NCBI GenBank assembly: GCA_965220365.1
Contig: OZ244823.1
Coordinates: 3,429,125 to 3,493,124, forward strand
Length of the DNA stretch: 64,000 bases
DNA from: Rhodothermales bacterium
GTDB taxonomy: Bacteria > Bacteroidota > Rhodothermia > Rhodothermales > Bin80
Direction of reading: 5' to 3'
Shown: piece after piece, positions 52,362 through 61,088 of the stretch
Numbering within the stretch: the first letter of the stretch is position 1
Layout of the letters: each line of letters starts with the position of its first letter
Made by a program: the position numbers and the translations under genes
The notes under the pieces: generated by a model
The model's database searches: none
Told to the model about the DNA's origin: nothing
Seen by the model: only the letters and a program-made list of their open reading frames with translations

Positions 52362-52372
52362 GGAATATACCC
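52362..52372. repeat. 11-mer GGAATATACCC abutting the left end of IS4 copy A (outer repeat)
   Basis: Matches 10/11 with GGAGTATACCC at 61078-61088, abutting the right end of copy B. Confidence 0.65.
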
Positions 52373-53842
52373 CATAAGCGCTAACTTGTTTATGCACGAA
52401 AATAATTTTCAATTTGAGCGGTTCTTTTGCGGGAAGGCTCCTTCAGTCCGTCGGATATGGAGGTCCACTGCTGAATCATCGTGGTGAATCCGCAGATAGG
52501 TTCAATCGCTCGAATCACTTCATTCAAGGCGAACCTAAAATCTTTCCAAGGACTGTGCGGGTATCCGGTAGCCCCAGGGGGAAAAAGTTCGTGCGTGACG
52601 AACGATTTTTTCTGTGAGCAGTGCCACGAGGAGCTTTCCATAAAGCCACGCCTTTGCACTCTCTTCATCGGATTTTGGCAGATGGCCAAACTGAACCAGT
52701 GACTTGAATCTCTTAAAGACGAGTTCAATCTGCCACCTGAGGCGATACCCCTCAAGCACATCGGATGCAGAAAACCGGTCTACAGGAAAGGTTGTAAACA
52801 CGATCACATAACGTGCAAAGCATCGCGTTGCATCCAGTGGCTGTTTCCCTTTCCGCTGGGCATTCTGATCCATACGCCTGAGCGCCTTCTGAGTCGCTTC
52901 TTCTGTTTTTCGAAGCACACAAATACGTCCAGAGACCCCCGGTCCAGTTTTCGTCTTCACCTTCACACACCATTGTCCAATCTCCCCTGTGCGTGTGATG
53001 GATTCCACCGCGGATAATAAGTTGAATGCGCCCCCCGATTCCTGCTCAAAATGGAATGCCCCCGTGTTCACACGAACGGTCACATATCCCCCTGCGTTTC
53101 GAACGTATTCAATCCCATTCGCGGTGGAATATCCCCGGTCTGCCAGAATATAATCGCCTGGATGGACCGGAAAATGCTTGAAGGTTTCTGCACTCCCCTG
53201 CCCCTTGGTCGGCGTGAGCTTGAAGAAGTCACACCCGAAGGAAGGAAGCGTCACACTGTAATGCAATCTCCACTGGGATCCCGTTTTTCCTGGCTCACTC
53301 ACCACGGTGGCATCAAACGCGCGCATCTCATGTGCGGGATCCGATACGGCAATCCCATGTTCCTGAAACAGGGCCATACACAAGGCATAGAGCCAATCCC
53401 GGGATTTGCGCAAACGCTTCAGGAGCGCGACATCCGAGAGGTCCGCGATCTCCGCCTGACGGGCACGAACCACCGTTTCCCGTAATGAGTGTCCGCACCC
53501 CAAGTGGATGAGCAAGGTTCGAAGAAGCGCCTCGGCAGACTTGTCCTTACGCAGTCCCCGCAAGGCCCCAGTTTCTGCTGCTAGCTTCTCCCAGTTCTCA
53601 GGTAAAAATGAAAGCAATACCCCCCAGTCCTCACTAGTTGGGGCAGCGGTAGCGGTCCCCGGCATAAAATCTCTCCCAGCAGTCGTTTCGTTGTAGAATA
53701 TATCCAAGCAGAAGGACAATCGCAGCCACACAACTCAGAAAGTCCTTGTGGCGCTCCAACACAAAACCGGCTATCTTGCCTTCATCCCCCAGATATCGCA
53801 AAACTACAACAATATTCTAATCTGAACATGTTAGCGCTTATG
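52373..53842 (-). mobile_element. IS4-family insertion sequence, copy A (1470 bp)
   Basis: Perfect 13-bp termini (CATAAGCGCTAAC ... GTTAGCGCTTATG). Identical to copy B (59608-61077) apart from two substitutions I could find (52497 T/C and 52533 A/G). The left boundary is uncertain by up to 3 nt because of a C run. Confidence 0.85.
52535..53731 (-). CDS. IS4-family DDE transposase
   Basis: 398 aa. Contains the ILADRGY catalytic context and the IS4 Y(2)R(3)E(6)K signature in YRLRWQIELVFKRFK. Confidence 0.9.
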   Translation of the reverse strand: MWLRLSFCLDIFYNETTAGRDFMPGTATAAPTSEDWGVLLSFLPENWEKLAAETGALRGLRKDKSAEALLRTLLIHLGCGHSLRETVVRARQAEIADLSDVALLKRLRKSRDWLYALCMALFQEHGIAVSDPAHEMRAFDATVVSEPGKTGSQWRLHYSVTLPSFGCDFFKLTPTKGQGSAETFKHFPVHPGDYILADRGYSTANGIEYVRNAGGYVTVRVNTGAFHFEQESGGAFNLLSAVESITRTGEIGQWCVKVKTKTGPGVSGRICVLRKTEEATQKALRRMDQNAQRKGKQPLDATRCFARYVIVFTTFPVDRFSASDVLEGYRLRWQIELVFKRFKSLVQFGHLPKSDEESAKAWLYGKLLVALLTEKIVRHARTFSPWGYRIPAQSLERF

Positions 53843-53853
53843 CCCGTTTGCCC
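53843..53853. repeat. 11-mer CCCGTTTGCCC abutting the right end of IS4 copy A (inner repeat)
   Basis: Identical to 59597-59607, abutting the left end of copy B. Confidence 0.75.
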
Positions 53854-53951
53854 CCGCACCCCTGCAGCGGATCACCGGTGCGCTTGCTTGACCGTTCTTT
53901 GAACTCGTTCGGGTTGTACCGCGCGGGGCGCGCCGTCACCTGTTTGATCAT
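53854..53951 (-). pseudogene. N-terminal piece of the rolling-circle Rep-like gene (separated from the rest by the IS4-bracketed arrangement)
   Basis: The ATG at 53951 (minus) gives MIKQVTARPARYNPNEFKERSSKRTGDPLQGCGG.... It continues in frame into 59607 and downward once one IS4 copy plus one 11-mer are removed and the segment is circularised. Confidence 0.5.
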
Positions 53952-58704: not shown

Positions 58705-59607
58705 TCACGCATCGCGGCTTTCAACTGCTCTACTAACGCATTGAACTCTTTGATCTTCTTTTCCCTGCTCATCCGTTGATTTATTTGGGTTGCACGTGTA
58801 TGTATTTCCATTGCTGACCGCCCGCAATATCGGTACGATCATCTTGCCCCGTACACGTTTCGGCAAGTGATCCAGTTCCCATCCCTTACGTTCCGCCAGG
58901 GCGCGCCATTGATCCGCTAACTCCAGTTCCATTGCCCGCACTTGCTCATCGGTCAGTGTCAACCGTTCGGGCGGCTTGCGTAGTTCTTTCCATCGCTTGC
59001 GGTTCCGGATTCCCCACCATCGGCCGGGCGATTGAACGTGCTGCGATTTCAACTGACGATCCCCCCGCTGACGCGTCTTGAGTTGCTCACCCGCTATCGG
59101 GGAACGAACGACCGTCAGCTCTTTTGCCCCCGCTTTCTGCAGATACGCGATCACGTCCGAAAAATCCCGTACCGCTTCCATATTCGTGCCGGCTTTCAAG
59201 TGATCCGCATCCGGCTTGCCCCCACGCCCGCCACCGTATCCGCCCAGGACCAGGAAAGCCACTTGCGGCGGTCATCCGATTCGGTGCGGTTCATCGGTGT
59301 TGGCCATTGCGTCAGTAGGCGATAATGCCATGCCCCGCGTTTCTGCAGTTCCACGCACCATAACGCCCAACATTCCCCGCCGTACTCATGCAAAAGACGT
59401 TTCCACCATTCGTGAAAATTCTCTTTGCAAAGTTCCGGATCCCGGTATTCCTCACGCCATCCGCGCCGCCCTAGATACGTCAGCGTGACGAACGAACTAG
59501 ACCATCCCGCGGGGGGATTGCGTAGTGCATCGTAGCTTTCGTAGACCGTTTCCTCATGCCGTCGACGGCTTGCTGCAGAACAGCCCCCAATGCCCCCCCG
59601 TTTGCCC
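58705..59607 (-). pseudogene. Rolling-circle replication initiator (Rep)-like gene, main part; contains at least one internal frameshift
   Basis: One frame gives ...WSSSFVTLTYLGRRGW (RCR motif I-like FxTLTY) ...RGAWHYRLL (HUH-like position, here H-Y-R). After a frameshift near 59230-59260 the frame of the 58705-59262 ORF gives AVRDFSDVIAYLQKAGAKE (Tyr motif III-like) and GRWWGIRNRKRW. Confidence 0.5.
59597..59607. repeat. 11-mer CCCGTTTGCCC abutting the left end of IS4 copy B (inner repeat)
   Basis: Identical to 53843-53853. Confidence 0.75.
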
Positions 59608-61077
59608 CATAAGCGCTAACTTGTTTATGCACGAAAATAATTTTCAATTTGAGCGGTTCTTTTGCGGGAAGGCTCCTTCAGTCCGTCGGATATGGAGGTC
59701 CACTGCTGAATCATCGTGGTGAATCCGCAGACAGGTTCAATCGCTCGAATCACTTCATTCAAGGCGAGCCTAAAATCTTTCCAAGGACTGTGCGGGTATC
59801 CGGTAGCCCCAGGGGGAAAAAGTTCGTGCGTGACGAACGATTTTTTCTGTGAGCAGTGCCACGAGGAGCTTTCCATAAAGCCACGCCTTTGCACTCTCTT
59901 CATCGGATTTTGGCAGATGGCCAAACTGAACCAGTGACTTGAATCTCTTAAAGACGAGTTCAATCTGCCACCTGAGGCGATACCCCTCAAGCACATCGGA
60001 TGCAGAAAACCGGTCTACAGGAAAGGTTGTAAACACGATCACATAACGTGCAAAGCATCGCGTTGCATCCAGTGGCTGTTTCCCTTTCCGCTGGGCATTC
60101 TGATCCATACGCCTGAGCGCCTTCTGAGTCGCTTCTTCTGTTTTTCGAAGCACACAAATACGTCCAGAGACCCCCGGTCCAGTTTTCGTCTTCACCTTCA
60201 CACACCATTGTCCAATCTCCCCTGTGCGTGTGATGGATTCCACCGCGGATAATAAGTTGAATGCGCCCCCCGATTCCTGCTCAAAATGGAATGCCCCCGT
60301 GTTCACACGAACGGTCACATATCCCCCTGCGTTTCGAACGTATTCAATCCCATTCGCGGTGGAATATCCCCGGTCTGCCAGAATATAATCGCCTGGATGG
60401 ACCGGAAAATGCTTGAAGGTTTCTGCACTCCCCTGCCCCTTGGTCGGCGTGAGCTTGAAGAAGTCACACCCGAAGGAAGGAAGCGTCACACTGTAATGCA
60501 ATCTCCACTGGGATCCCGTTTTTCCTGGCTCACTCACCACGGTGGCATCAAACGCGCGCATCTCATGTGCGGGATCCGATACGGCAATCCCATGTTCCTG
60601 AAACAGGGCCATACACAAGGCATAGAGCCAATCCCGGGATTTGCGCAAACGCTTCAGGAGCGCGACATCCGAGAGGTCCGCGATCTCCGCCTGACGGGCA
60701 CGAACCACCGTTTCCCGTAATGAGTGTCCGCACCCCAAGTGGATGAGCAAGGTTCGAAGAAGCGCCTCGGCAGACTTGTCCTTACGCAGTCCCCGCAAGG
60801 CCCCAGTTTCTGCTGCTAGCTTCTCCCAGTTCTCAGGTAAAAATGAAAGCAATACCCCCCAGTCCTCACTAGTTGGGGCAGCGGTAGCGGTCCCCGGCAT
60901 AAAATCTCTCCCAGCAGTCGTTTCGTTGTAGAATATATCCAAGCAGAAGGACAATCGCAGCCACACAACTCAGAAAGTCCTTGTGGCGCTCCAACACAAA
61001 ACCGGCTATCTTGCCTTCATCCCCCAGATATCGCAAAACTACAACAATATTCTAATCTGAACATGTTAGCGCTTATG
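59608..61077 (-). mobile_element. IS4-family insertion sequence, copy B (1470 bp), in direct orientation with copy A
   Basis: Same termini and an identical transposase. All ORF-track translations match copy A except the two substitutions noted there. Confidence 0.85.
59770..60966 (-). CDS. IS4-family DDE transposase (identical to 52535-53731)
   Basis: The 398-aa translation is identical to that of copy A. Confidence 0.9.
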   Translation of the reverse strand: MWLRLSFCLDIFYNETTAGRDFMPGTATAAPTSEDWGVLLSFLPENWEKLAAETGALRGLRKDKSAEALLRTLLIHLGCGHSLRETVVRARQAEIADLSDVALLKRLRKSRDWLYALCMALFQEHGIAVSDPAHEMRAFDATVVSEPGKTGSQWRLHYSVTLPSFGCDFFKLTPTKGQGSAETFKHFPVHPGDYILADRGYSTANGIEYVRNAGGYVTVRVNTGAFHFEQESGGAFNLLSAVESITRTGEIGQWCVKVKTKTGPGVSGRICVLRKTEEATQKALRRMDQNAQRKGKQPLDATRCFARYVIVFTTFPVDRFSASDVLEGYRLRWQIELVFKRFKSLVQFGHLPKSDEESAKAWLYGKLLVALLTEKIVRHARTFSPWGYRIPAQSLERF

Positions 61078-61088
61078 GGAGTATACCC
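61078..61088. repeat. 11-mer GGAGTATACCC abutting the right end of IS4 copy B (outer repeat)
   Basis: Matches 10/11 with 52362-52372. Confidence 0.65.

Follow-up and report, generated by a model that had tools for sequence, protein, structure and literature searches.

The window analyzed here is a 64,000-nucleotide (nt) stretch of the genome of an uncultured Rhodothermales lineage (assembly GCA_965220365.1, contig OZ244823.1, positions 3,429,125 to 3,493,124). In its spacer between mutS2 and a TPR gene, two copies of an insertion sequence (IS) bracket DNA that holds a HUH rolling-circle replication gene (rep), a candidate origin, a pair of genes for a lipoprotein and a membrane protein, and a nested IS1595 element with a methylase. 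IS copy A (52373-53842) and copy B (59608-61077) are both 1470 bp long and both lie on the minus strand; copy A has 18-nt imperfect inverted repeats starting 5'-CAT. Within copy A, the transposase gene spans 52535-53665 (376 amino acids [aa] from an ATG), and the longest open reading frame (ORF), from a GTG, extends up to 53731. This single ORF (52535-53731) is uninterrupted by frameshifts and identical in A and B. The two copies differ only at 52497/59732 (T/C) and 52533/59768 (A/G), both just 3' of the transposase stop codon (52535-52537). An earlier note, made from the letters of the window, had described two direct IS4-family copies of 1470 bp with two substitutions outside the ORF, and both its coordinates and its two differences were reproduced.

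The transposase matched the family model NF033592 ("IS4 family transposase") at 139 bits against a cut-off of 115, with positions 3-331 of the 332-position profile aligned, and also matched Pfam DDE_Tnp_1. The YREK signature, Y-(2)-R-(3)-E-(6)-K, reads YRLRWQIELVFKRFK in the 376/398-aa ORF, and the ends of the element read CATAAGCGC...GCGCTTATG, i.e., they begin with 5'-CAT. The IS4 family is defined by YREK, by a target duplication of ~10 bp (10-13 bp in the IS231, ISH8, and IS4 subgroups), and by 5'-CA(T) ends (PMC2266710). Judged by its predicted protein, its termini, and the 11-bp duplication described below, the element of copies A and B is a member of the IS4 family as defined by De Palmenaer et al. 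(2008; PMC2266710). Since its closest annotated relatives are at most 35% identical, this IS has not previously been described. A third copy of the element is present in the same genome (P0019).

Each IS copy is flanked by 11-nt sequences, and these are crossed between the two copies. To the left of copy A lies GGAATATACCC (52362-52372; the left chromosomal copy of a duplication here called X), and to the right of copy B lies GGAGTATACCC (61078-61088; X', the right chromosomal copy), which differs from X by an A-to-G change. The inner flanks, to the right of copy A (53843-53853) and to the left of copy B (59597-59607), are both CCCGTTTGCCC (Y, copies 1 and 2), of which copy 1 lies within rep. 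The order is therefore GGAATATACCC, A, CCCGTTTGCCC, the enclosed DNA, CCCGTTTGCCC, B, GGAGTATACCC. For sequences at fixed positions, the probability of a chance match is 2.4e-7 for 11 of 11 nt and 8e-6 for at least 10 of 11, and CCCGTTTGCCC had no further occurrence in the 64-kb window outside the two Y sites. All four flanks, which the earlier note had given as an 11/11 inner and a 10/11 outer match, were recovered on alignment.

Comparison with relatives showed the chromosomal site in its empty state. In three strain-level relatives (L112, L113, and L114; TPR protein 98.5% identical), a single GGAATATACCC joins window position 52372, base for base, to 61089 onward, and their 840-bp spacer is made up of window 52019-52372 (354 bp) and 61089-61574 (486 bp). 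X is thus the original sequence. The outer 11-mers are therefore a target duplication, as the earlier note's model required, and the G of the right copy arose after insertion. Species-level relatives (L002-L017) yielded synteny and no empty site, since the spacer differs between species. In L002, L004, and L106-L109 a 772/773-aa FG-GAP/LVIVD gene stands between mutS2 and TPR, and the segment was absent from the native locus in at least 11 contigs and two chromosome-level metagenome-assembled genomes (MAGs). The suggestion that 53.8-59.6 kb is not native DNA was borne out, since relatives have either the 772/773-aa gene or the 840-bp spacer between mutS2 and TPR. This secreted protein (L002 5823-8144) was lost before the IS arrived, as L112-L114 already have the short 840-bp spacer; its decayed last 54 codons persist in the window at 61271-61432 on the plus strand (56% identity), a trace of the history of the site before insertion.

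An occupied site was found in two further contigs. L110 and L111, possibly two assemblies of one sample, share 99.56% identity with the window; they start 55 nt (L110) and 30 nt (L111) inside the right end of the IS and continue into GGAGTATACCC and the right flank. An IS-chromosome junction with the derived G, which they share with the window, thus exists in another dataset. The IS ends of L110 (1-55) and L111 (1-30) carry T to A at IS positions 1444 and 1457, and the change at 1457 makes the terminal inverted repeats perfect.

We then re-closed the enclosed DNA in silico: one IS and one 11-mer were deleted and 59607 was joined to 53854, circularizing the 5.75-kb insert. One continuous minus-strand frame resulted over the junction. 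Without the nested element, the backbone of the circle is 3094 bp, in agreement with the ~3.1 kb estimated earlier. The 5' part of the frame (53854-54002, minus strand; approximately the first 50 codons) is truncated by IS copy A, and the 3' part (58705-59607, minus strand) carries motif I (FVTLTY), a mutated HUH motif (WHYRLL), and the Tyr motif (VIAYLQK). The reconstructed Rep matched Pfam PF23343 (REP_ORF2-G2P) with 37.9 bits against a cut-off of 27.8 over residues 71-152, and also matched a PHROG for rolling-circle initiation. Since PF23343 covers one side of the junction only, the decisive test was whether homologues cross it. Five Rep homologues, all of them PF23343 carriers, aligned straight across. 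In P0001, which is 66% identical to the reconstructed Rep, YTKFFRYGSDTEILMLKQ...DDPLRGGGGIRGNVGGYS corresponds to YTEFFRYGSDTETLMIKQ...GDPLQGCGG, the junction, and KRGGIGGCS in the window; before the junction, YTKFFRYGSDTEILMLKQ...DDPLRGGGG of P0001 aligns with YTEFFRYGSDTETLMIKQ...GDPLQGCGG. Residues R36 and G37, whose codons fall within or right next to the duplicated 11-mer, do not vary among the six sequences. Because homologues cross the junction, the two ends of the segment are halves of one gene. The fused frame proposed in the earlier note (53951->53854 to 59607->) reads as written there and has homologues that cross the junction, so its continuity stands; its start and its extent need correction. 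Conservation with P0001 reaches upstream of the Met first chosen, which makes the TTG at 54002 the probable start of rep. The frame ends at 59196 and resumes in another frame because one nt is missing from a G5 run (59219-59223).

In the alignment, F72-Y77 (motif I, FxTLTY) and Y189 and K192 (Tyr motif, Y..K) are invariant, the Tyr motif becoming accessible only once the G5 frameshift is repaired. The metal-binding H-hydrophobic-H motif is H(Y/F)H in all five homologues, whereas the window has WHYRLL (CAT TAT CGC). We read the predicted H-Y-R as that of an inactivated member of the PF23343 family and not of a non-member. As translated, the integrated rep is dead in three ways: it is split by the IS, the second His of the HUH motif is replaced by Arg (CAC to CGC), and the frame is shifted.

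The plasmid non-coding region (56729-57191, minus strand) contains a conserved 49-nt core at 56821-56869 (...GCGTCAGCGCGCATCAAGGGCTTG) that is a candidate for the double-strand origin or the nick site. A second copy, with 94% identity, lies at window 14015-14063, and the core is also conserved in L001 and L105. The only backing for the ori-like repeat region of the earlier note is this core; its predicted fold was not significant (z = -1.57). In the window, L001, and L052, the core occurs on the upstream side of rep in the form ...TCAAGGGCTTG; L052, a distant member, has CAAGGGCTTGTC (613) ~130 nt ahead of its rep. Homology of the second window copy (14063/14064) and of L105 (~1540) to the rep-linked elements breaks off directly after ...TCAAGGGC(T/A)TG; the first window copy and L001 (~1500) run on with TCCGC after C(T/A)TG. 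This breakpoint may be the nick site of Rep or a hot spot of illegitimate joining. CTTG followed by the nick is the pattern of pC194 and phiX174.

The two cargo genes lie beside this region on the minus strand, and neither product belongs to a known family. One encodes a 146-aa membrane protein (57192-57632), with 96-97% aa identity to its counterparts in L104 and L105 and 47% to a second copy at 13238-13651; the other (57629-58306) encodes a 225-aa lipoprotein with the lipobox LIAGC, from a small family of 10 clusters. The pair is intact and 94-97% aa identical to the copies in L104 and L105, where rep is likewise dead or absent. A counterpart of the pair was also found in a sister-strain sample (L115, 10001-11274, and L116), 90.6% identical in nt and 86% in aa. 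There it is chromosomal, an ordinary gene pair after tig-clpP-...-rsfS, without rep and without the origin core. Since L115 holds a plain chromosomal pair, the cargo has moved between chromosome and plasmid within this lineage.

The nested element (54069-56720, minus strand) is 2652 bp long with 24-nt inverted repeats and a transposase at 55678-56649. The transposase matched PF12762 (1.5e-36), PF12760 (1.4e-10), and NF033547 (167 bits, cut-off 75), and an 8-bp duplication, TTTTTTTG, surrounds the element (54061-54068 and 56721-56728). From its ISXO2-like DDE domain, N-terminal zinc ribbon, inverted repeats, and 8-bp duplication, the element is assigned to the IS1595 family. It is a clean insertion 66 nt upstream of the probable rep start, and it may have inserted before or after integration. 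Its passenger (54283-55678) encodes an N6/N4 DNA methylase whose tail is weakly Mrr-like. The methylase is frameshifted in a G9 run (55239-55247); phase variation of the tract, true decay, or a sequencing error in the homopolymer could each account for this.

Relatives of this Rep occur on small circles. More than 313 were found in JGI metagenomes, and at 28 of the 84 fetched Rep loci the two termini overlapped exactly, which implies circles of 1.4-6.3 kb, the majority of them 1.4-3.4 kb. For L019, whose Rep is 36% identical, self-BLAST revealed that the long-read contig consists of 4.65 tandem copies of a 2945-bp unit, with 99.97-100% identity among copies; the unit also encodes proteins of 388 and 99 aa without family matches. 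The PF23343-type family (L019, L024-L103) is abundant in soil, sediment, and other metagenomes, with circles down to ~1.4-1.8 kb, which leave little space besides the rep gene. L001, which carries the closest intact Rep, showed no terminal overlap. Family profiles recognized no virion or capsid genes in the element, L001, or L019. BLAST against a phage collection gave no match, and against a plasmid collection one weak match, to a 5.8-kb Couchioplanes plasmid. A microvirus-like or satellite origin was rejected on these grounds and because Reps on viral contigs were only 29-34% identical. "Plasmid" is therefore the best label for the circle, with a capsid-less virus satellite as a less likely possibility. 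Among ~15 billion proteins, no other sequence was at least 90% identical to the 185-aa C-terminal Rep fragment (P0002). With rep inactivated in three ways and no such match, we conclude that the element is not an active free plasmid. L104 was considered as a free-plasmid fragment and rejected, since it holds only a 50-codon dead Rep remnant.

The arrangement, as read from the assembly, shows a predicted plasmid inserted whole and circularly permuted at the IS, with X outside, Y inside, and the IS copies direct: the IS sits at GGAATATACCC in the mutS2-TPR spacer, and the same IS interrupts rep at CCCGTTTGCCC. With X and X' at the outer ends and Y at both inner boundaries, this is the layout of a cointegrate (PMC4196232). 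The earlier note had proposed replicative transposition into a circle or IS-IS recombination with one, and the crossed duplications together with the empty site support a cointegrate. It is thus very probable that a small circular replicon was joined to the Rhodothermales chromosome as an IS-mediated cointegrate, and we infer that the final joining was recombination between two IS copies. Since different routes yield an identical product, the route itself cannot be read from the sequence. Transposition in the IS4 family has been described as cut-and-paste, via a hairpin intermediate (PMC2266710), and for this reason we lean, at a little short of even confidence, toward two steps. By cut-and-paste, the IS would first have entered the rep gene of a single plasmid copy and generated the 11-bp duplication there; host homologous recombination would then have crossed the plasmid-borne IS with a resident chromosomal IS. 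The rep-disrupted plasmid would have persisted briefly in between, presumably helped in trans by intact sister copies. A one-step cointegrate, made by the transposase from the resident copy, is a possible but rather unlikely course; it would avoid a rep-dead plasmid intermediate. After integration, the element would have decayed or rep would have been silenced, the cargo genes remaining intact.

Several observations weigh against a captured plasmid or against the routes proposed for it. Both plasmid-IS junctions (Y) were observed in this assembly alone, and no free or uninterrupted copy of the exact plasmid was found in the collections searched. The closest intact Rep, at 66% identity, lies on a 61%-GC contig (L001) that probably belongs to another host. 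Both frameshifts, in the G5 run of rep and the G9 run of the methylase, are in G-runs and could be sequencing errors. The two-step route needs a short-lived rep-disrupted plasmid copy, and a one-step replicative cointegrate would be atypical or new for the IS4 family. Lastly, over its 55 bases, the IS end in L110 departs from both copies in the window at two positions, a sign of gene conversion between copies of the IS; a simple crossover with a resident copy of the L110 type does not predict these differences, so gene conversion or lineage-specific change is needed. The L110 strain may carry either the composite or a solo IS.

Cut-and-paste transposition would also allow the IS-plasmid-IS unit to have moved as a block, as a composite transposon, into the empty GGAATATACCC site, the outer 11-bp duplication being made at that moment. 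The unit itself would go back to a multimer or rolling-circle concatemer of a plasmid with the IS in rep, or to another site in the genome, no resident IS would be needed, and a solo IS in sister strains would be a later product of IS-IS resolution. Tn5 and Tn10 are classic cases of composite transposition. Such movement is classic behavior for the cut-and-paste IS4 family (PMC2266710), the outer flanks are a 10/11 duplication of the site that is empty in L112-L114, rolling-circle replicons readily give multimers (L019 is a concatemer contig), and the IS copies, both right ends included, are nearly identical. However, a plasmid with the IS in rep must first have existed as a multimer, and the divergence of the IS copies (2/1470) is not above that between strains (11/2912), a comparison that is powerless for dating the capture (p = 0.24). 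Since the final structure is the same as by the other routes, it lends block transposition no positive support, and we consider it improbable.

The structure could instead have been created on the computer. A chromosome with a solo IS at X and a separate circle with the IS might have been joined through the shared 1.47-kb repeat, since chromosome-IS-circle-IS-chromosome is a valid walk in a repeat graph and the Y junctions are confined to this one assembly. The L110/L111 sample has no recorded copy, at 90% identity or more, of the membrane gene or the rep fragment, which hints at a solo IS there. A chromosomal paralogue of the cargo pair, 86% identical in aa, is present in that sample (L115/L116). 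However, the window is part of a 3.58-Mb contig, and sister MAGs are chromosome-level, implying long reads that would span the 8.7-kb structure; the two IS copies were resolved as distinct by two single-nucleotide differences; and the supposed free circle, rep-dead three ways, could not replicate unaided, with no helper found and the nearest intact Rep only 66% identical. An assembly artefact is thus very improbable. The segment could also be native chromosome that received two independent insertions of the same IS, its matching flanks and frame continuity being coincidental. Its host-like GC content (guanine plus cytosine; 52.0% for the backbone, 50-51% for the host) and the plain chromosomal counterpart of the cargo pair in L115 would suit that explanation, although the GC match also accords with a plasmid captured in this host. 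Native origin is nevertheless refuted by the empty site, which joins both outer flanks directly; moreover, no relative examined has the segment at this locus, crossed 11-mers would arise by chance at ~2e-7 x 8e-6, and Rep homologues align through the junction. We regard native origin as next to impossible.

The IS-mediated capture favored here most resembles the staphylococcal IS257/IS431 case, in which two direct copies of one IS enclose a complete, integrated small rolling-circle plasmid. Copies of the pUB110 and pT181 types in multiresistance plasmids and SCCmec are examples. In the published account of IS257 (PMC5703833), the replication region of the integrated rolling-circle plasmid was later inactivated or deleted. 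The window is similar in that rep is dead and the cargo intact. It differs in its IS (IS4 family, YREK, 11-bp duplication, and described as cut-and-paste, whereas IS257 is an IS6-family element with an 8-bp duplication and an obligate cointegrate former), in its uncultured Rhodothermales host, in its Rep (PF23343, not Rep_1 or Rep_trans), and in its cargo, a lipoprotein and membrane-protein pair without known function in place of a resistance gene. We know of nothing comparable to IS6-family cointegration in the IS4 family. The duplication layout is the same as in IS26 cointegrates (Harmer, Moran and Hall 2014), where the outermost repeats are those of the recipient's IS and the repeats at the internal boundaries come from the IS of the incoming molecule, and where different routes lead to the same end product (PMC4196232). 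Replicative and targeted-conservative cointegration are both documented for the IS6 family and have been proposed to set it apart (PMC4196232).

The initiators of PF23343, known from microviruses, inoviruses, and small plasmids, share with the window copy motif I, the Y...K motif, and a Pfam score above cut-off; the window copy differs by H-Y-R and by having no recognizable capsid or virion gene. For the final step, the favored parallel is F integration in high-frequency-recombination (Hfr) strains. F integrates by homologous recombination between plasmid-borne and chromosomal IS copies. The topology is the same when a plasmid-borne IS recombines with a chromosomal copy, whereas F is large, theta-replicating, and conjugative with intact replication genes, and the window holds a 3-kb rolling-circle replicon whose rep is itself interrupted.

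The novelty lies in the IS, in a plasmid family that is poorly catalogued, and in the uncultured host. The understanding of IS-mediated integration is unchanged, as capture of small rolling-circle plasmids by an IS has long been known (PMC5703833, PMC4196232). The case is unusually complete for one built from sequence alone: it comprises an empty site, a site occupied in a sister strain, crossed duplications, and a rebuilt replication gene. It indicates that uncultured Rhodothermales host tiny rolling-circle plasmids whose Rep family is poorly catalogued, and that plasmid cargo becomes fixed in the chromosome through IS elements while the replication gene decays, which should be of use in annotating these MAGs and in surveys of plasmid-to-chromosome gene flow. 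A bolder proposal, which we offer as a long shot, is that the IS4-family element, although its family is regarded as strictly cut-and-paste, itself makes cointegrates, replicatively or by IS26-like targeting of a second IS, and that the IS-flanked, rep-dead plasmid is a translocatable unit shuttling the cargo pair among uncultured Rhodothermales genomes. If so, the same traffic would have produced the rep-less copies found in other samples as well as a remnant 40 kb away in the window.

That remnant, at 12485-14063, is a second, older, plasmid-derived sequence in inverted orientation, with a lipoprotein gene (44% aa), a membrane-protein gene (47% aa), and the core (94% over 49 nt); it holds no Rep remnant. 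Since it carries the same gene pair and core, the window holds two captures of related plasmids. Abutting it at 9712-12484 is another IS1595-family element, with 27-nt perfect inverted repeats, a 311-aa transposase, and two passenger genes without NCBIfam family matches, whose products are, at a guess from their sequences, a methyltransferase (325 aa) and a restriction-enzyme-like protein (220 aa). Its flanking 8-mers differ (CTAAAAAA and AAAATTCC); with no matching 8-bp duplication, one flank has probably recombined. On the other side of the remnant lies a ~650-bp element (14064-14318 and 15801-16199), which is a discrete insertion in L004 (~8800-9440) and is interrupted in the window by an IS110-family element (14319-15800; 378-aa transposase at 14600-15736).

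A scan of 52.0-61.5 kb against Rfam found no known RNAs. Downstream of mutS2, 46892-49719 is a lineage-specific insertion with an IS5/IS1182-like transposase (48336-49466), absent from L003, L106, L112, and L113 except for a 67-bp stretch (48065-48131). Finally, 21100-29000 contains three large paralogous stretches with many 36-nt repeats that encode D-x-N-x-D-G-type motifs (FG-GAP/calcium-binding-like), which points to putative tandem paralogous secreted repeat proteins.

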